Position numbers and translations under genes: made by a program | DNA from: an uncultured Clostridia bacterium | Lineage (GTDB): Bacteria; Bacillota; Clostridia; TANB77; CAG-508 | Reading direction: 5' to 3' | Length of the DNA: 64,000 nt | Assembly (NCBI GenBank): GCA_934149275.1 | Contig: CAKPEG010000008.1 | Location: 210-64,209, forward strand | Notes under the pieces: generated by a model | What the model saw: only the letters and a program-made list of their open reading frames with translations | The model's database searches: none | What the model was told of the DNA's origin: nothing | In this document: in pieces, positions 2,831-63,745 of the stretch | Position numbering within the stretch: position 1 is the stretch's first letter | Layout of the letters: each line of letters starts with the position of its first letter

Positions 2831-3418
2831 TTAGTTAAAATTTTGATAAAATTTCTTTTGTGCTAATTTTTCTTGAACGCCATTTAATGCTTCTCCAAAT
2901 CTTTGGAAGTGAACGACTTCACGTTCTCTTAAGAATCTTAATGGATCTAATACGTCAGGATCATCTGCGCAAAGGTCAATTAATTTTTCATATGTTGCAC
3001 GAGCTTTTTGTTCGGCAGCAAGGTCTTCTGTTAAATCTGTTACGGGATCACTTGTTACTTGCAATGTTGCTGCGCTAAATGGTGTTCCACTTGCTGATTG
3101 AGGATATGTGCCCCAGCCGTGATCTGTAAAATATGCTCCTAATCCGGCTTTTTCTAGTTCTTCAGGACATACACCATCTGTTAATTGATGAACCATACTG
3201 CTTACCATCTCAAGGTGGGCCAATTCTTCCGTGCCTATGTCGTTTAGGATAGCTTTTGATTTTTCGTCTGGCATGCTTATTCTTTGAGAAATATATCTTA
3301 AAGCTGCACCAATTTCTCCGTCAGGTCCACCATATTGTGAAATTATAAATTTTGCTAAACGTGGATTTGGATTTTTTATTCTAACGGGATATTCTAATTT
3401 CTTTTGATATAACCACAT
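2831..3418 (-). CDS. cotJC: Spore coat protein CotJC (manganese-catalase/ferritin-like family)
   Basis: Ferritin-like di-metal motifs (GEIGAALRYISQ, EELAHLEMV). Last gene of a cotJA-cotJB-cotJC ordered cluster with overlapping junctions. Confidence 0.85.
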   Translation of the reverse strand: MWLYQKKLEYPVRIKNPNPRLAKFIISQYGGPDGEIGAALRYISQRISMPDEKSKAILNDIGTEELAHLEMVSSMVHQLTDGVCPEELEKAGLGAYFTDHGWGTYPQSASGTPFSAATLQVTSDPVTDLTEDLAAEQKARATYEKLIDLCADDPDVLDPLRFLREREVVHFQRFGEALNGVQEKLAQKKFYQNFN

Positions 3419-4584: not shown

Positions 4585-6273
4585 ATGCGAAAAAAGTGGA
4601 AATATAAAGAATTAGATGAAGAGAAAATTGATGAAATAGTTAAAAAATTTAATGTACCTGAATTATTAGCCACGGTTTTGGTTAATAGAGGTATAGTTGA
4701 TGATGAAGAAATTAGAGTATTTTTAAATCCTACAAGATCTGATTTTCACGATCCATATTTAATGCCTGATATGGAGATTGCTGTTGAGAGAATTATAAAA
4801 GCAATTGATAATCAAGAAAAAGTTATTATTTATGGTGATTATGATGTTGATGGAATAACTAGTATTACAGTTTTAAAGAAATTTTTAAAGACTTGTGGTT
4901 TAGAGGCTGATTATTATATACCTAATCGTTTAAGTGAAGGGTATGGCTTGAATAATGCAGCGATTGATTATATAAAAGAAAAAGAATATACATTGATTAT
5001 TACAGTTGATTGTGGAATTTCTGGTATTGAAGAGATTGAATATGCAAATAGCTTAGGAATTGAGACTATCGTAACAGATCATCATGAGCCAATGGAAGTT
5101 TTACCACCTGCTGTTGCTATTGTTGATTTGAAGAGAAAAGATAATGATACATATCCATTCAAAAGTTTAGCTGGTTGTGGGGTTGTTTTTAAATTAACTC
5201 AAGCGCTTGGAATGAGACTTGGTATAGATGAAAAAGAATATTTAAAATATTTAGATATTGTTTGTGTTGGTACAATTTCAGATATTGTTCCATTAGTTGA
5301 TGAAAATAGGGTTATTGCTAAACTTGGATTAAAGTTGGTTGAAGTTACTAGAAATCCTGGACTTAAGGCTTTGCTTAATGCTTCTGGATATAAGGTTGTT
5401 AACTCAAATACAATTTCTTTTGGAATTGCTCCTAGAATTAATGCTTGTGGAAGAATGGGCTATGAGGAAGAAGCTTTAAAATTATTTTTAACTGAAAATT
5501 TAGTTCAAGCTTCAGAAATAACTGAGAGATTGAATAAATATAATAGAGATAGACAAGAAATAGAGAAAAATATTTATGATGAAGCAATTAAAATGATGGA
5601 AAAGGAAGATTCAAATGCTCAGTCTATTGTTTTAGGAAGCAATAATTGGCATCATGGTGTTATTGGAATTGTTTCTTCAAAGATTACAGAGATGTATTTT
5701 AAGCCTTCAATTTTGATATGTTTTGAAGGTGAGGATGGAAAAGGTTCTGGTAGAAGTATTCCTGGATTTGATCTTCATGAAGCTTTGGCTGAAACAGCTA
5801 AGTATTTAGAGAAATACGGCGGTCATGAAATGGCTGTTGGATTAAGTTTAAAAAAGAATAATTTTAATAGATTTAAAGAAGCTTTTGAAAAATATGTTGA
5901 AGAGAAAGATATAACTGGAATAGTTCCAATTATAGAGATTGATAAACAAATAAGTTTGAAAGATATAGATAGTAATATTGTTAAACAATTAGATTTATTA
6001 GAGCCTTTTGGTGAGGCTAATAGAAGACCAGTTTTTGTTTATAAGAATTTGAAAATAGATTCTATTCGTGCTTTATCAGATGGAAAGCATTTGAAGATGA
6101 CATTGAAAGATGGTAATACAATTGTTAATGCGATTGGTTTTAATATGGGGCAACTTTCAAAAGAGTATATGATAGGTGATAGAATTGATGTTGTTGGAAC
6201 ATTAGAAATAAATGCTTATAACGGAAGAGAAATGGTACAAATTAATGTTAAGGATATAATGAAGTCTTTATAA
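4585..6273 (+). CDS. recJ: Single-stranded-DNA-specific exonuclease RecJ
   Basis: DHH-family motifs (DYDVDGITS, VDCG, TDHHEP) and the DHHA1 motif GGHEMAVG. Confidence 0.9.
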   Translation: MRKKWKYKELDEEKIDEIVKKFNVPELLATVLVNRGIVDDEEIRVFLNPTRSDFHDPYLMPDMEIAVERIIKAIDNQEKVIIYGDYDVDGITSITVLKKFLKTCGLEADYYIPNRLSEGYGLNNAAIDYIKEKEYTLIITVDCGISGIEEIEYANSLGIETIVTDHHEPMEVLPPAVAIVDLKRKDNDTYPFKSLAGCGVVFKLTQALGMRLGIDEKEYLKYLDIVCVGTISDIVPLVDENRVIAKLGLKLVEVTRNPGLKALLNASGYKVVNSNTISFGIAPRINACGRMGYEEEALKLFLTENLVQASEITERLNKYNRDRQEIEKNIYDEAIKMMEKEDSNAQSIVLGSNNWHHGVIGIVSSKITEMYFKPSILICFEGEDGKGSGRSIPGFDLHEALAETAKYLEKYGGHEMAVGLSLKKNNFNRFKEAFEKYVEEKDITGIVPIIEIDKQISLKDIDSNIVKQLDLLEPFGEANRRPVFVYKNLKIDSIRALSDGKHLKMTLKDGNTIVNAIGFNMGQLSKEYMIGDRIDVVGTLEINAYNGREMVQINVKDIMKSL

Positions 6274-13372: not shown

Positions 13373-13453
13373 ATGTATGAAAGAACGTTTAGGTAATAAT
13401 CTTGACTGGTGTGATATAATAAGAGCATCAAACATAGATAGGAGGTTTCTGAT

Positions 13454-24936: not shown

Positions 24937-24970
24937 GAACGTGGAAATCAATGAGGTTCTACGTTTTTTT
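24937..24970 (+). terminator. Intrinsic terminator
   Basis: GAACGTGGAA...TTCTACGTT stem followed by TTTTTTT. Confidence 0.75.
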
Positions 24971-25067
24971 ATATTATGGACAAGTTTTCAAAAATTTTTG
25001 TGTAAAAAATAATGTATAAAAATATTGATTTAAAAAGTTATAATAAATGCAAATGTTAATACTTTTT
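24970..25067 (+). repeat. R1 intergenic cassette, short variant (copy 4)
   Basis: Shares TTGATTTAAAAAGTTATAATAAATGCAAATGTTAATAC with the R1 core at 35575-35630, 62585-62622 and 63692-63730, and a TATATTATGG start directly after the terminator T-run. Confidence 0.6.
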
Positions 25068-26996: not shown

Positions 26997-27048
26997 TTAA
27001 AAAATATAGATAATTATTTTAAGTATAATCAGAAATATTATTAAAGGT

Positions 27049-27087
27049 AAAAATAACGTAAAACTTTGTCTAGTTTTACGTTATTTT
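27049..27087 (+). terminator. Intrinsic terminator
   Basis: AAAATAACGTAAAAC/GTTTTACGTTATTTT 15-bp stem with a T-run. Confidence 0.8.
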
Positions 27088-27175
27088 TGTATAATATGCA
27101 TAAAATTTGTGTGCGAGTAAAAATTAGAAAAAAGTTATAATGAGAGCAATGTTAATAAGTTTGATTTTTGTTCTC

Positions 27176-27204
27176 TTGACAAATACCCTATAGGGGTATA
27201 TAAT
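27176..27204 (+). promoter_or_regulatory. cop operon promoter with CsoR-type operator
   Basis: TTGACA (27176-27181), 17-nt spacer, TATAAT (27199-27204). The spacer holds the GC-tract pseudopalindrome ATACCCTATAGGGGTAT (27183-27199), typical of CsoR boxes. Confidence 0.75.
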
Positions 27205-27225: not shown

Positions 27226-27537
27226 ATGGCATGTAGTAAGTGCGGAAAATGTCAGATGTGTCAAAAGTCTACACATAGGACTGATGAAGAGAAAAAAAGA
27301 CTTACTAAAAGATTAAATATTATTGAGGGACAAGTTAGAGGAGTTAAACAGATGATTGAAAATGATAGATACTGTGATGATGTTTTAACTCAATTATCTG
27401 CAATAAATAAGGCTTTGGAAAGCTTGGAAAATTCAATTTTAGAGAGTCATATTGCAACATGTGTGACTTATGAAATTCAATCTGGTAATTTAGATATTAT
27501 AGAAGAAGTAATGGATTTAATAAAAAGATTAAGATAG
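27226..27537 (+). CDS. csoR: Copper-sensing repressor CsoR
   Basis: DUF156-type RLNIIEGQVRGVKQMIENDRYCDDVLTQL...H..TC with the C-H-C ligand pattern. Confidence 0.85.
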   Translation: MACSKCGKCQMCQKSTHRTDEEKKRLTKRLNIIEGQVRGVKQMIENDRYCDDVLTQLSAINKALESLENSILESHIATCVTYEIQSGNLDIIEEVMDLIKRLR

Positions 27538-27788: not shown

Positions 27789-29987
27789 TTGAAGAAAGTT
27801 TTATTAAAAATTGGAGGAATGACTTGTAGTGCTTGTTCTAGTGGATTAGAAAAATACTTGAATAAGCAAGATGACGTTGTTCGAGCTAATGTTAATTTGG
27901 TAATGAATAATGCAAGTATAGAGTATGATGATAAAAAATTATCTTTAAAAGATATAGAGAAATTTGTTGATAAAGCTGGTTTTGAAAGTTTAGGAATAGA
28001 TAATTTGAAAAAGGAAGAGAGAAAAAAATCTGGAGAAAAAATTAATTTAATTTTGACTTCAATTTTTTCAATTGCGATTTTATATGTGTCTATGGCACAT
28101 ATGATAGGTTTGCCTGATATTCCTTTTTTGAGTATGATGGAACATCCTTTGAATTATGCGGTTTCATTGCTTGTTTTAACAACTGTTGTATTAGGATTAG
28201 GATATAGCATTTTGAAAAACGGAATTAAAAATTTAATTCATGGAACTCCTAACATGGACACTTTAGTTACAATAGGTGTTTTTGCTAGTTTTATTTATAG
28301 CGTATATGAAACGGTACAAATTTTTTTAGGAGATACAAGTTTTGTACATTCGCTTTATTATGAGTCAGCTGCTATAGTTATTTTCTTCATTAGAATTGGA
28401 AAATATGTTGAAGGAATAAATACTGATAAAACTAAGGAAGCTATTCAAGAGTTGATGACAATAACTCCTAATTCTGCTGTTATTGAAAGAGATGGTAAAG
28501 AGCTTACTGTTACTTTAGATGAAATAGAAAAAGGTGATATTGTTATTTGTAAGCCTGGTGAAAAGATTGCAGTTGATGGTACAGTGGTTGATGGAATTTC
28601 TCACATTAACGAATCTTTTATTACTGGTGAGAGTATGCCAGTTAAAGTTGAGGCTGGTTCTAAGGTTATTGCAGGGAGCATTAATTATGAAGGTGCAATT
28701 AAATATAATGCTGAAAAAATAGGAAGGGAATCAACCGTTTCTGAAATTGTTAGAATGGTTGTTGAAGCTACAAATACAAAAGCGCCTATTTCAAAACTTG
28801 CTGATAAAGTTAGTAGTGTGTTTGTTCCTATTGTTATTGCAATTGCTATTATTACTTTTATTGTATGGTTAATAATTGGAAAGAGTTTTGCTGTTGCATT
28901 GAATTATTTTGTAACAGTTTTAGTTGTGGCTTGTCCATGTAGTTTGGGATTAGCTACACCGCTTGCTATTGTTATTGCTTCTGGAGTTTGCAGCAAAAAT
29001 GGAATATTGGTTAAAAATAGTGAAAGCTTAGAAAATGCTCATAAAGTAAAAACAATCATTTTTGATAAAACGGGAACTTTAACAAAAGGAACATTGAGTT
29101 TTTCAAAAATGTATAATTACAGCGATTTGAGTGATGATGATATTTTCAAAGTTATTGCAGGAGTTGAAAAGAAATCTGAGCATCCAATTGCAAAAGCAAT
29201 AGTGGAAGAGGCTGAAAAGAGAAATATTGATTTTGATGAAGTAAAGGAATTTAAAGCTATTTCAGGTCAAGGTGTTTTTGCTGTTGTTGAAAATTATGAT
29301 GTTTTAATTGGAAACAAGAGATTAATGGATGCTAATAATATTTCTGTGCATGAGTCTGATTTTGATGAGTTAGTAAATGACGGAAATAGTATTTTATATG
29401 TAAGTTTGAATAATAAAGTTGTTGCTTTAATTGGAGTTAAAGATATTGTTAAAGAAAAGGTTTCTGGAGTTATTGCTTCTTTGAAAAAGAAAGGTATTAA
29501 TGTTGTTATGCTTACAGGAGATAATGAAGTAACTGCAAAGAAAATAGCTGAAATTGCTGGAATTGAGACTGTTGTAGCTAATGTTATGCCAAGTCAAAAG
29601 GCTGAGTATGTTGAGAAGTTAAAAAAAGATGGCTTGGTTATGATGTGTGGAGATGGAATTAATGATAGCGTTAGTTTAGTTAAAGCAGATATTGGTGTTT
29701 CAGTTTCTTCTGGAACTGACATTGCGATGGACTCTGCACAGGTTGTTATTATGAATGATAATTTGGATAGAATTAATGATTTGATTAGAATTAGTTCTAA
29801 AACTATTCGAAATATTAGTGGTAATTTGTTTTGGGCATTTTTCTACAATATTTGTATGATACCAATTTCTATGGGTGTGTTTGTTGGTTTAGGAGTGAGC
29901 ATGAACCCAATGCTTGCGGCACTTGCAATGGTTTTCAGTAGCTTATTTGTGGTATTAAATGCTTTGAGGTTGAGAGTTGTTAAATAA
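27789..29987 (+). CDS. copA: Copper-translocating P1B-type ATPase CopA
   Basis: N-terminal HMA (GMTCSAC). CPC in the TM helix. DKTGTLT, TGDN and GDGINDS motifs. TTG start after AAGGAGAG. Confidence 0.9.
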   Translation: MKKVLLKIGGMTCSACSSGLEKYLNKQDDVVRANVNLVMNNASIEYDDKKLSLKDIEKFVDKAGFESLGIDNLKKEERKKSGEKINLILTSIFSIAILYVSMAHMIGLPDIPFLSMMEHPLNYAVSLLVLTTVVLGLGYSILKNGIKNLIHGTPNMDTLVTIGVFASFIYSVYETVQIFLGDTSFVHSLYYESAAIVIFFIRIGKYVEGINTDKTKEAIQELMTITPNSAVIERDGKELTVTLDEIEKGDIVICKPGEKIAVDGTVVDGISHINESFITGESMPVKVEAGSKVIAGSINYEGAIKYNAEKIGRESTVSEIVRMVVEATNTKAPISKLADKVSSVFVPIVIAIAIITFIVWLIIGKSFAVALNYFVTVLVVACPCSLGLATPLAIVIASGVCSKNGILVKNSESLENAHKVKTIIFDKTGTLTKGTLSFSKMYNYSDLSDDDIFKVIAGVEKKSEHPIAKAIVEEAEKRNIDFDEVKEFKAISGQGVFAVVENYDVLIGNKRLMDANNISVHESDFDELVNDGNSILYVSLNNKVVALIGVKDIVKEKVSGVIASLKKKGINVVMLTGDNEVTAKKIAEIAGIETVVANVMPSQKAEYVEKLKKDGLVMMCGDGINDSVSLVKADIGVSVSSGTDIAMDSAQVVIMNDNLDRINDLIRISSKTIRNISGNLFWAFFYNICMIPISMGVFVGLGVSMNPMLAALAMVFSSLFVVLNALRLRVVK

Positions 29988-34461: not shown

Positions 34462-35436
34462 ATGAAAGTTGATGGATTTATTAAAAACTTAAAAAGAAGT
34501 TTGATTATTGGAATTATTTTAATTCTTGCATCTATATTCTTTTATTGGATGGCAGTAAGTGTTAGTGATAAAGATACAAATGCAACTCCAGTTGATTGGG
34601 GAACATTAAAAAATTCAGGAAATGATGCAGAAGAGACATATGTTAAAATAACGAATATATGGGAACCAGATCAATTTGCTGAATTAGAAGGTAGTGAGAA
34701 TGATTATAAGTATTATATAGTTGGTGATGAAAATAATGCGTATATTGCTAAATTGACAGTTGATACTTTTAATAAAATTGAGAGTGCAATTGATGAACAA
34801 GGTGAAAATTTTTCTTATGAGTTAAAAGGATATATTTATGCAATTCCTGATGAAGTAAAGAAACTTGCGATAGAGAGAGTAAAAGAATATTCAGAAGAAG
34901 ATTTCACAGATGCAGATTTTGATCAATATTTTGGAAAGTATTATTTAGATGAAATTCAATTGCCTAATGATGGTACTGTTTCACTATGTGTTTGTTTAGG
35001 TGTATTTGCTGATATTTTTGCTTTCGCTTGTTTTATTACGTATTTTATCAAAAAGTCAAGAATGAAGAAAACTTTAAAAGAATTTAATAAAGATGAATTG
35101 GAAAAAGCGTTAGAAAAAAGTGTAGCTTATGAAAAAGCTAAAATATATTTAGCAGATGAATATTTAATTTCTACTGCATCTGGACTTGATGTAATAAAAT
35201 ATGATGATTTGTATTGGATATATATTAATAAGACTAAATACAGAGGTATAACAACTGGAAGATATTTAATTGCAATTAAGAAGGATAAGAGAAGTGTTCA
35301 AATTGCATATACGGTAAGAGATGAAAAAATGCTTCAAGAAATAATGGAAAAAATTCATGAGAAAAATGATCAAATATTAATTGGTTATACGCCTGAAAAC
35401 CAAAAGACATTTGCGGAATTTAGGAAAAATAAATAA
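34462..35436 (+). CDS. Two-TM membrane protein of unknown function
   Basis: ATG 34462 follows AAAGGTG. TM helices near residues 15-35 and 165-190. No family recognised. Confidence 0.55.
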   Translation: MKVDGFIKNLKRSLIIGIILILASIFFYWMAVSVSDKDTNATPVDWGTLKNSGNDAEETYVKITNIWEPDQFAELEGSENDYKYYIVGDENNAYIAKLTVDTFNKIESAIDEQGENFSYELKGYIYAIPDEVKKLAIERVKEYSEEDFTDADFDQYFGKYYLDEIQLPNDGTVSLCVCLGVFADIFAFACFITYFIKKSRMKKTLKEFNKDELEKALEKSVAYEKAKIYLADEYLISTASGLDVIKYDDLYWIYINKTKYRGITTGRYLIAIKKDKRSVQIAYTVRDEKMLQEIMEKIHEKNDQILIGYTPENQKTFAEFRKNK

Positions 35437-35443
35437 TTACGAA

Positions 35444-35480
35444 AGAGATTTTTGATAGTTTTTTGTCAAAAATCTTTTTT
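35444..35480 (+). terminator. Intrinsic terminator
   Basis: AGAGATTTTTGA/TCAAAAATCT stem followed by TTTTT. Confidence 0.8.
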
Positions 35481-35645
35481 ATATAATAGGAAAGTTCTCC
35501 AAACTTCTTATTATATAAATTAACAATGCATAGAAATTTGCGAAGTAAATTTCGCGCGCGAACAAAGACGCGGACTTAAAAATATTATAATCAGTGTAAA
35601 TGTTATTAATGTCCGCTTTTGTTCTTTTGAGATGAAGTTGTTTGT
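35479..35645 (+). repeat. R1 intergenic cassette (copy 1)
   Basis: Near-identical by eye to 62489-62636. Has a 5' hairpin TATAATAGGAAAGTT/AACTTCTTATTATA, a GC palindrome TTCGCGCGCGAA, and a 3' hairpin GCGGAC-N35-GTCCGC plus TTTTGTTCTTTT with an invariant TATAAT in its loop. Confidence 0.75.
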
Positions 35646-35663
35646 GTCTAAAAGGACGTCCCA

Positions 35664-35679
35664 TGACACCCACATGACA
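35664..35679 (+). promoter_or_regulatory. Direct repeat TGACA-N6-TGACA in the RR gene leader
   Basis: TGACA at 35664-35668 and 35675-35679 (11-bp period). This is the reverse complement of the TGTCA-N6-TGTCA repeat at 37819-37834. Confidence 0.4.
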
Positions 35680-35702
35680 CCAATTACACGTTAGGAGTTT
35701 TT

Positions 35703-36374
35703 ATGAGTAGGATTTTATTGGTTGAAGATAATGATTCAATAATTTTAGGTTTAGAATATTTATTTAAGGAAGAAAAATTTGAGTTCGATTTTGCTAAATT
35801 GAAGAAGGATGCAATTGATAAAATTGAGAAAGAGAATTTTGATATTGTTTTGATTGATATTGGCTTGCCTGATGGTAATGGGTTTGAGGTTGGAAAATAT
35901 GTGAAGGAGTATAGAAAGCAGTTGCCGATTATTTTCTTGACGGCTAATGATGAGGAGAAGGATGTTGTATATGGATTAGATTTGGGTGCAGAGGATTATA
36001 TTACAAAGCCTTTTCGAAATAGAGAGTTGATTTCTAGAATTAAGAATGTGCTTAGGAGAAATGGTAAGCCTGATTTGATTTCATGTAAGGGTGTTTCGAT
36101 TGATACGGTTCAGAGGAAGGTTTTTAGAGATGGAGCTGAAGTGGATTTAACTAAACTTGAGTACAGTATTTGTTTGAATTTGTTTAGTAATATTAATAAG
36201 TTGATTACGCGTGAGGAGATTTTGAATGATATTTGGGATTTAGCGGGTAATTTTGTGAATGATAATACGCTTACGGTTTATATTAAGAGAATTAGAGAGA
36301 AGATTGGTGATAAGGACGGAAAGATTATTGAGACTGTGAGAGGTGTTGGATATAGAGTTAGTAGTGAAAACTAA
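35703..36374 (+). CDS. OmpR/PhoB-family response regulator
   Basis: Receiver domain (VEDNDS, VLIDIGLPDG, K in ITKPF). Winged-helix output (TVRGVGYRV). Confidence 0.9.
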   Translation: MSRILLVEDNDSIILGLEYLFKEEKFEFDFAKLKKDAIDKIEKENFDIVLIDIGLPDGNGFEVGKYVKEYRKQLPIIFLTANDEEKDVVYGLDLGAEDYITKPFRNRELISRIKNVLRRNGKPDLISCKGVSIDTVQRKVFRDGAEVDLTKLEYSICLNLFSNINKLITREEILNDIWDLAGNFVNDNTLTVYIKRIREKIGDKDGKIIETVRGVGYRVSSEN

Positions 36375-62463: not shown

Positions 62464-62490
62464 GAGATGGACTTTTGTTCATCTCTTTTT
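62464..62490 (+). terminator. Intrinsic terminator
   Basis: GAGATG...CATCTC stem followed by TTTTT. Confidence 0.7.
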
Positions 62491-62636
62491 GTATAATAGG
62501 AAAGTTTTATGAAATCCCTATTATATAAAAATAACAATGCACAGAAATTTGCTTTGTAAATTTTGCGCACAAACAAAGATGCGGACTTAAAAAAGTTATA
62601 ATCAGTGAAAATGTTATTAATGTCCGTTATTGTTCT
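62489..62636 (+). repeat. R1 intergenic cassette (copy 2)
   Basis: Aligns with 35479-35645 along its whole length by eye. Has a 5' hairpin TATAATAGG/CCTATTATA and a 3' hairpin GCGGAC-N35-GTCCGT. It ends directly at the SD AAGGGGGAG of the PHP gene. Confidence 0.75.
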
Positions 62637-63548: not shown

Positions 63549-63604
63549 TTTAAAGTAATGTAAGTACTCTTACTTAAAGTTTTGATAAAGTTGTAGGTAC
63601 TTTT

Positions 63605-63745
63605 TTATGTAATAGGGAACTTTTTTGAACTTTCTATAAATAACAATGCTTAGAAATATAACAAGCAAAATTCGTGTATGAATAAGAATGTTGACTTGAA
63701 AAAGTTATAATAAGTGCAAATGCTATAAATGTATGCTTTTGCGCT
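63605..63745 (+). repeat. R1 intergenic cassette (copy 3, more diverged)
   Basis: Shares TGTAATAGGGAAC..., TAACAATGCTTAGAAAT and the core TTGACTTGAAAAAGTTATAATAAGTGCAAATGCTATAAATG with the other copies. Confidence 0.65.

Follow-up and report, generated by a model that had tools for sequence, protein, structure and literature searches.

The question raised by this locus is what a sequence of ~147 nt that recurs between unrelated genes of a single contig, always in front of a gene and always in the same direction, is doing there. The sequence, here called R1, lies within a 64,000-nt stretch of an uncultured Clostridia bacterium (GenBank assembly GCA_934149275.1, contig CAKPEG010000008.1, positions 210 to 64,209; the whole stretch is hereafter the window), and the copy under review occupies positions 35481-35625, between a DUF6709 gene and a response regulator/histidine kinase/ABC transporter module. 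A first-pass annotation of the window had offered four readings of R1: a multicopy small RNA (sRNA) gene, an attenuator leader, a promoter/operator cassette or a non-autonomous mobile element. The last of these is favored here because R1 occupies ~28 sites in a few related species, is absent from the same locus in a sister species and a close strain, diverges in a roughly neutral manner, exists in truncated, deleted and tandem forms, and coincides at its ends with synteny breaks; a promoter cassette is likely a side effect at some sites, and the sRNA and attenuator readings are weak, because R1 starts behind a terminator with no conserved promoter, is poorly conserved between orthologous loci, and in four copies lies between convergent genes. 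We thus think it rather likely that R1 is a family of small non-coding interspersed DNA repeats of the SPRITE/BOX/RUP/REP kind that has spread in a narrow lineage of uncultured human-gut Clostridia. It is best read as a small, selfish, interspersed repeat which at times provides a promoter; less likely readings are a multicopy sRNA and a regulon operator.

R1 is a family of narrow distribution. A covariance model was built from the family alignment, and loci were fetched from relatives and metagenomes (designated below by L-numbers; ~0.73 Mb of relevant DNA); the model gives 47 strong matches, which represent 39 distinct sequences at ~28 genomic sites. When one genome of each species was scanned with a pattern, three uncultured species alone had true copies: "Clostridium sp." UMGS1994 (whose contigs are 96-98% identical to the window), UMGS1672 and the species of a Hadza Clostridia metagenome-assembled genome (MAG). 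A metagenome scan yielded 32 further loci, and those contigs whose names reveal a source are from human-gut or Hadza samples. Intact copies were not found in loci of 14-21 kb each from relatives with a 76-78% identical PHP protein, nor was there a true match in phage, plasmid and viral collections, where a 47-nt match inside a Bacillus gene was dismissed as chance and two pattern matches in viral contigs were rejected by the covariance model. The earlier impression that R1 belongs to no known riboswitch or leader family is upheld by Rfam 15, which gives no match at gathering score anywhere in the window; when E-values up to 10 were admitted for 35400-35720, the best (0.72) was for a plant miRNA model and is noise.

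The position of R1 with respect to its neighbors is sharply defined. A hairpin of -5 kcal/mol or better plus a T-run, the terminator criterion used here, ends exactly at the start of the element at 16 of 23 distinct sites, versus 33 of 920 random positions (3.6%) in the same loci (Fisher p = 4e-17), so that what had been noticed for the window copies, a start at the T-run of the preceding gene's terminator, holds for most sites of the family. Two further sites have longer hairpins that the scan did not catch, and where there is no hairpin the 5' flank is T-rich nonetheless. The upstream hairpins all differ in sequence among sites and are therefore native terminators of the upstream genes. The upstream open reading frame (ORF) is co-oriented with the element at 27 of 28 sites (p = 2e-7) and the downstream ORF at 22 of 27; the downstream genes share no function, as had been supposed from the absence of a common pathway. 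The genes around four copies are convergent, and in two cases (L006 and L036:8764) the copy ends at the stop codon of the opposing gene; three of these four copies occupy the strand of negative GC skew. Of the 28 copies, 24 are on the positive-skew strand; orientation is tied to the terminated gene and not to the direction of replication, because three sites on the negative-skew strand still follow the upstream gene.

Presence or absence of the element varies at three loci, for which empty sites were located via homologues of the flanking genes. The 35481 locus has shared synteny (copper ATPase, ThiF, patatin, Mur ligase, DUF6709, response regulator, histidine kinase and ABC transporter), and the spacer between the DUF6709 and response-regulator genes measures 266 nt in the window, where the element is present, 85 nt with no element in a species whose DUF6709 is 80% identical (L071-L073), and 229 nt of unrelated sequence in a strain whose DUF6709 is 93% identical (L075). 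The DUF6709 terminator hairpin is common to all three lineages, and both hairpin and T-run are kept in the element-free L071 and L075; the T-run is of equal length in the two closer genomes, and divergence starts exactly past it. The T-run (35475-35480) is accordingly assigned to the DUF6709 terminator and not to the element, because its length is the same in the strain that has no element. In L075 an unrelated sequence of 186 nt (6019-6204), single-copy in the fetched data, stands exactly where the window has R1, directly past the same T-run, and the position just past a terminator may be a general hotspot for insertion or replacement. At the second locus, the 63607 copy is missing from a strain (L063/L064) whose PHP protein is 96% identical; in that strain another gene lies behind PHP, and the 62491 copy is present. 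At the third, a degenerate copy lies behind the attenuator terminator of a leader in L065 and L052, and not in L068. This leader is conserved upstream of a cation P-type ATPase (L065 10990-11150, L068 10990-11150, L052 12350-12560) and comprises a promoter, a AATGAGGGAGTAATTAGC... segment and the attenuator terminator; the L065 sequence matches no Rfam family at gathering score, and the leader may be an unannotated riboswitch or leader.

Once in place, copies decay. Orthologous copies are 94-97% identical, compared with 98-99% for 600-nt mostly coding flanks, and R1 divergence appears to be roughly at the neutral rate. Decayed and variant forms consist of P1 only or P3 only (the hairpin modules are described below), of an internal deletion from TATAAT to TATAAT, of tandem partial copies and of a 32-nt duplication; L011 (5600-5660) has such a 32-nt tandem duplication of the 3' half of P3 (AGTGTAAATGTTATAA..GCTTTTG), giving two terminator-like 3' arms. 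Between-strain synteny breaks coincide with element ends at several places. When the window is compared with L044/L063, homology to the other strain begins in the terminator hairpin (63584-63606), 21 nt before the 63607 copy, and different genes lie behind PHP in other strains; because homology starts within the hairpin and other genes follow PHP elsewhere, the rearrangement breakpoint is placed inside the terminator adjoining this copy. In the short contig L056, the flank upstream of one R1 site is fused to that downstream of a second site (L043 4025-4181 and 11419-11563, 7.4 kb apart in the same orientation), which reflects either a deletion caused by recombination of two copies or chimeric assembly at the repeat.

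The R1 unit is built of three hairpin modules, P1, P2 and P3 (Table 1). The 35481-35625 copy, with 93% BLAST identity to the consensus of the family, has a predicted fold of -42.9 kcal/mol (z = -6.8). The outermost pairs of P1 are formed by the native T-run with an A-run, and alignment pairs 8/45, 9/44 and 16/37 of P1 are among those changed on both sides. Of P2 cells 96% are paired, and its loop is variable; P3 has 18 pairs (91% of cells paired), is followed by TTTTGTTCT, and is flanked by an A-tract and a U-tract. Among 22 distinct sites the majority fraction is 0.84-0.95 in the stems, 0.71 in the P1 loop and 0.65 in the P2 loop; the 26-nt "loop" of P3, which is a direct repeat of AAATGTTAT(A/T)AAT, has a majority fraction of 0.91 and is thus conserved like its stems. 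The first-pass annotation had correctly described a 5' hairpin with a conserved stem (0.84-0.86) and a variable loop, and a 3' hairpin GCGGAC...GTCCGC with its T-rich tail, and had missed the third, P2. It had also recorded the palindrome TTCGCGCGCGAA, which exists; far from being an oddity of one copy, this palindrome is the family consensus at the P2/P3 junction and recurs in many copies. Its proposal that the 3' hairpin is a terminator is borne out by the stem and the U-tract and not by the 26-nt loop: an intrinsic terminator has a GC-rich stem, a loop of 3-8 nt and a U-tract, and a consensus terminator scan makes no call at P3. A conserved peptide was also considered, in the form of the only recurrent ORF (17 aa, MHRNLLCKFRARTKTRT), which begins at the invariant ATG of the linker, and was rejected: the ORF lacks a ribosome-binding site, and indels in L011, L043 and L020 disrupt its frame.

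Table 1. Position in the window of R1 copies, of the parts of the copy under review and of the adjoining terminator.
Feature	Position	Strand	Description
Intact R1 copy under review	35481..35625	+	P1, linker, P2, P3 in order; 177 bits against covariance model R1
P1	35478..35519	+	Long near-perfect hairpin TATAATAGGAAAGTTC / GAACTTCCTATTATA (fold)
Linker	35520..35527	+	Unpaired, near-invariant TAACAATG; majority fraction 0.90 (alignment A2)
P2	35528..35557	+	GAAATTTGC-N3-GCAAATTTC hairpin/palindrome plus short outer helix; takes in part of TTCGCGCGCGAA
P3	35560..35624	+	Interrupted stem GAACAAAG / GCGGAC / TTAA ... TTAA / GTCCGC / TTTTGTTC; 26-nt loop
TATAAT box	35586..35591	+	Within P3 loop, pointing at downstream gene
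Native intrinsic terminator of upstream DUF6709 gene	35445..35480	+	Hairpin 35445-35476 (-12.9 kcal/mol), then T-run; outside element
Intact R1 copy	62491..62636	+	Rubrerythrin terminator (62464-62490) on one side, PHP gene on the other; 150 bits
Older, diverged R1 copy	63607..63745	+	72% identity to consensus; 104 bits
Short decayed copy	24970..25067	+	P1 remnant and P3-loop core kept; P2 and P3 stems gone
Fifth, decayed copy	27090..27174	+	Found by BLAST to consensus; 38.8 bits (covariance model)

All four copies previously reported for the window, each on the + strand, were recovered at their places, and the core said to unite them, written as the pattern AAAANRTTATAATMARTGNAAATGYTA, matches exactly these four places, with 0.00 matches expected from 100 shuffles. 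The count was nevertheless incomplete, as the fifth copy had been overlooked, and the extent assigned to the copy under review (35479-35645) was too generous, its final 20 nt being unique flank. In the 24970-25067 copy the core alone scores against the covariance model (19.8 bits). The terminator upstream of the 62491 copy is called by the terminator scan at 62464-62485, and the ribosome-binding site of the PHP gene (62658) starts 9 nt past the end of that copy; a promoter-like site, TTGATA-17-TATTAT, which is separate from the element, comes after the 63607-63745 copy. The fifth copy sits between a terminator (27045-27089) and the promoter of a CsoR/copper operon. This promoter is a perfect TTGACA-17-TATAAT (27176-27204) with a palindrome, TACCCTATAGGGGTA, in its spacer, and the genes behind it (27226-27537 and 27789-29987) encode a CsoR-type metal repressor (PF02583) and a copper P-type ATPase; promoter and genes together look like a textbook CsoR operator and copper operon.

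From the position, orientation, distribution and decay of the family we infer that R1 is mobile and selects its target. It would integrate immediately 3' of an oligo-T tract, in practice nearly always the T-run of an intrinsic terminator, would come to point the same way as the terminated gene, and would then decay at about the neutral rate. Having a terminator on one side and the next promoter on the other, such a site would be nearly harmless to the host; an element inserted the other way round, at the A-tract side of the terminator, would part the gene from its terminator and would be purged. Carrying this idea further, one may speculate, with more doubt than conviction, that R1 represents a novel kind of mobile DNA, one that homes to terminators yet is no intron, and in which an enzyme would recognize hairpin plus oligo-T and place the element directly past the T-run. 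In such a scheme the A-run closing P1 would pair with the T-run of the target, and the P3 hairpin with its T-tract would rebuild a terminator-like target at the 3' end of the element, which would account for the tandem partial copies in L022 and L041. With a promoter in the P3 loop, transcription would start again for the gene that follows, and the insertion would thereby insulate itself and do little harm.

A number of observations weigh against the reading of R1 as a selfish mobile repeat. Neither a transposase nor a parent element was found: no ORF flanked by P1 and P3 was seen in the ~0.73 Mb of fetched DNA, separate searches with P1, P2 and P3 gave no surplus of lone modules, and the modules occur mostly together. 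Terminal inverted repeats are missing: when the consensus was inspected by eye, the left end, (A)TATAATAGGAAAG, matched the right end's reverse complement, TATAGAACAAAAGCGGAC, at ~10 of 18 positions, and each hairpin is a separate internal palindrome. The flanks of the 28 sites hold no consistent target-site duplication, and the one empty-site comparison made for such a duplication also differs downstream of the element. A clean empty site that differs only by the element was likewise not found, the best comparison differing downstream as well, and flank matching among the fetched loci, which had been picked for carrying the element, gave none. The TG of the extended -10 box discussed below is missing from all three intact window copies. 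In P1 and P2 the stems are better conserved than the loops, and at one orthologous site a single P1 pair is A.G, U.G and C-G in different strains. G-U cells exceed A-C cells by 132 to 53, or by 99 to 53 when one always-G-U pair is subtracted, a mild + strand bias that hints at selection on the + strand fold. It is therefore plausible that the hairpins are under some selection, though a mobile element may need hairpins too. The conservation of the P3 loop at the level of stems points to a possible sequence-specific function.

Several of these observations belong equally to the reading of R1 as a structured RNA in many copies, whether a family of sRNA genes acting in trans or an RNA element acting in cis, whose three hairpins would be the functional product. 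The intact copies have a strong predicted fold (z = -6.8 and -3.0), pairing is kept in 92.0% of cells, both partners change at nine pairs, and the covariation score lies above that of all 500 shuffles; G-U cells prevail about 2:1 over A-C cells on the + strand, the hairpin loops vary between conserved stems and a conserved unpaired linker, and P3 with its U-tract resembles a terminator. However, the shuffles still reach 91.0% pairing because the sequences are so alike, which leaves too little diversity for strong covariation, and the minus strand folds nearly as well (z = -4.1 and -3.6), as DNA palindromes would. An RNA is also hard to reconcile with a start that is the T-run of the upstream gene's terminator and has no conserved promoter in front, with orthologous copies that diverge faster than their flanks, with the frequent loss of whole hairpins by truncation, with sister lineages that have no element at the same locus, with the four copies between convergent genes and with the absence of a matching Rfam family. 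A structured RNA is thus unlikely.

The TATAAT box in the P3 loop raises the different possibility that R1 serves transcription of the gene behind it. The family consensus around the box is TGTTATAAT, an extended -10 sequence; the 35481-35625 copy carries TATTATAAT (35583-35591), and the other two intact window copies carry AGTTATAAT. The description of TATAAT as perfectly invariant is accurate for the four window copies first listed; family-wide it is found in 20 of 22 distinct copies, and TGnTATAAT in 13 of 22. No -35 match is present at a spacing of 16-18 nt from TATAAT. The TTGAC-like hexamer 9 nt upstream, previously regarded as part of the common core, is confined to two decayed copies (24970 and 63607), in which it replaces the GCGGAC stem arm; intact copies carry at this position GCGGACTT, the 5' arm of P3. 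A sigma-70 promoter with a -35 was rejected on these grounds. The sequence TGNTATAAT is, as judged by its placement, a native promoter type in this genome, because it is found 35-100 nt upstream of the native ORF starts at 13412, 17792 and 24102 in the window. A ribosome-binding site directly behind the element, after a terminator and with no other promoter visible, is found at the 62491 copy, L046, L049 and L041:11268; a canonical promoter separate from the element follows at 27176-27204, L022, L054 and L036:4674. From sequence of this kind we infer two activities: the extended -10 box in the P3 loop is probably the promoter of the downstream gene at the minority of sites that have a ribosome-binding site directly behind (e.g., that of PHP), and P3 may be a backup terminator in both directions, as predicted from its flanking A-tract and U-tract. 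In L006 and L036, P3 is the sole hairpin available to the convergent genes.

At the copy under review R1 is not needed as a promoter, because the 77-nt spacer behind it holds a motif that recurs upstream of the ABC transporter in L075. The recurrent stretch lies at about 35643-35668 (TGTGTCTAAAAGGACGTC...) and corresponds to L075 8191-8217; in the same spacer, between element and response-regulator gene, a direct repeat CATGACACC occurs twice, 11 nt start to start (35662-35681). Repeat and stretch may be candidate binding sites of an OmpR-type regulator, which would imply autoregulation.

A more far-reaching regulatory proposal is that selection maintains R1 as a host cassette in which a shared promoter is joined by an operator, either the palindrome of P2 or the direct repeat AAATGTTAT of P3, and which places unrelated genes under one regulator or sigma factor. 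The near-invariant TATAAT and the highly conserved P3 loop agree with this proposal, as does P2, a perfect 9+9 inverted repeat with a variable 3-nt center such as a dimer operator would have; the downstream gene is co-oriented at 22 of 27 sites, and for some genes no other promoter is visible. Against it, four copies are placed between converging genes, two of them reaching the stop codon of the opposing gene, and many copies have a separate canonical promoter behind them, among them the four listed above. The -35 position has no match, the downstream genes have no common function, the same genes lack the element in sister lineages, and divergence is about neutral. We therefore judge the cassette improbable, and return to the interspersed repeat as the preferred reading.

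Least probable is that R1 is a non-autonomous IS200/IS605-type derivative (PATE) or a REP-like sequence, moved by a single-strand HUH (Y1) transposase that would recognize the end hairpins and choose the 3' side of a short target in the lagging-strand template. The hairpins at either end, the failure to find terminal inverted repeats or a target duplication, the single-orientation insertion 3' of a short T-rich sequence and the 24 of 28 copies on the positive-skew strand are as expected, but P1 shares no sequence with P3 (in IS200/IS605 elements the two end hairpins, left and right, are alike), at 147 nt and three modules R1 is far larger than a REP, no candidate transposase turned up in the ~0.73 Mb of fetched DNA, which was not systematically annotated, and at four sites whose upstream gene runs against most genes of the locus, three of them on the negative-skew strand, the element follows the gene and not the replication strand. 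Nor is R1 a classical MITE (a miniature transposable element with inverted repeats), because it has no terminal inverted repeats and no target duplication was found; it does resemble a MITE in being small (147 nt), non-coding, multicopy (~28 sites) and variably present between genomes. A plain MITE, previously pictured with random orientation, copies inside genes and target-site duplications, is not what was found: the copies are intergenic and oriented.

One larger insertion was considered as a parent of R1. The Mn-catalase (CotJC-like) gene, intact in the window (2831-3418, - strand), is split in a UMGS1994 MAG (L016 4125-7624) by a 3.5-kb insert that encodes a large serine recombinase of 526 aa; the overlap is 5 bp, at window 3117-3121. 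The insert may represent an intervening element of the skin type within a sporulation gene, or else be integrative. It was rejected as a parent, being an unrelated serine-recombinase element at whose ends no R1-like sequence was noticed.

The family is of interest in several respects. The movement of small repeats that have no inverted termini (SPRITE, BOX, REP-like) is poorly understood, and the left junction of R1 offers a concrete target for tests: it is sharply defined, at the last T of a terminator and in one orientation, so that an insertion mechanism can be tested. For annotation, R1 marks intergenic DNA in uncultured gut Clostridia that should not be recorded as sRNA or riboswitch, and in metagenome assemblies it coincides with synteny breaks and possible assembly chimeras. 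R1 may donate promoters and backup terminators to its neighbors, for example the PHP gene, and if both activities are true it would be a compact natural terminator-plus-promoter insulator for low-GC Firmicutes.

Comparison with known systems places R1 among small bacterial repeats while setting it apart from each of them. REP/BIME sequences and the IS200/IS605-derived PATEs are, like R1, palindromic extragenic repeats at gene 3' ends with no inverted termini, and their mobility depends on hairpins. REPs, however, are single palindromes of 20-40 nt tied to RAYT genes, whereas the R1 unit has three hairpins, of which the two at the ends are unlike, and no transposase was linked to it in the DNA examined; of the two marks of a PATE/REP, similar end hairpins and orientation by replication strand, R1 has neither. 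Correia elements of Neisseria (CREE/NEMIS) are likewise repeats of ~150 bp; they bring sigma-70-type promoters to neighboring genes and can be terminators or processing sites, whereas the promoter of R1 is only predicted. Correia elements, which belong to Proteobacteria, carry terminal inverted repeats of 26 nt along with a TA duplication. BOX and RUP of Streptococcus pneumoniae share with R1 a modular build, partial or duplicated modules, stable predicted folds, and an intergenic, clustered and nested occurrence; they have terminal inverted repeats and target duplications, neither of which was found for R1, and BOX modules vary in number whereas those of R1 mostly travel together.

In choice of site R1 resembles the group IIC introns, which home to DNA stem-loops, mostly rho-independent terminators, and insert just downstream in the orientation of the terminated gene (PMC8643678); R1 lies directly behind a terminator at 16 of 23 sites versus 3.6% of random positions. 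There is no sign that R1 belongs to them: group IIC introns are ribozymes of 0.7-2 kb, usually with a reverse transcriptase, and an intron was rejected for R1, which starts ATATAATAGG and not with 5' GUGYG, is 147 nt long compared with at least 0.6 kb, and matches no intron model at E-values up to 10. The closest analogue, in a comparison by description and not by sequence, appears to be the pneumococcal SPRITE, which is terminator-like, enriched at gene 3' ends, found in close relatives only, and has no known transposase or established target duplication (PMC3049150). SPRITE and R1 are both small, AT-rich, non-coding interspersed repeats of a Firmicute, restricted to one or two closely related species; both form a long duplex followed by a U-rich tract, both are enriched near gene 3' ends and between convergent genes, and neither has a known transposase or an established target duplication. 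R1 differs from SPRITE in having three hairpin modules instead of a single 18-bp duplex, in adjoining the T-run of a separate native terminator, so that it lies behind a terminator rather than just resembling one, in its nearly constant co-orientation with the upstream gene, and in the extended -10 box carried by its terminal hairpin.

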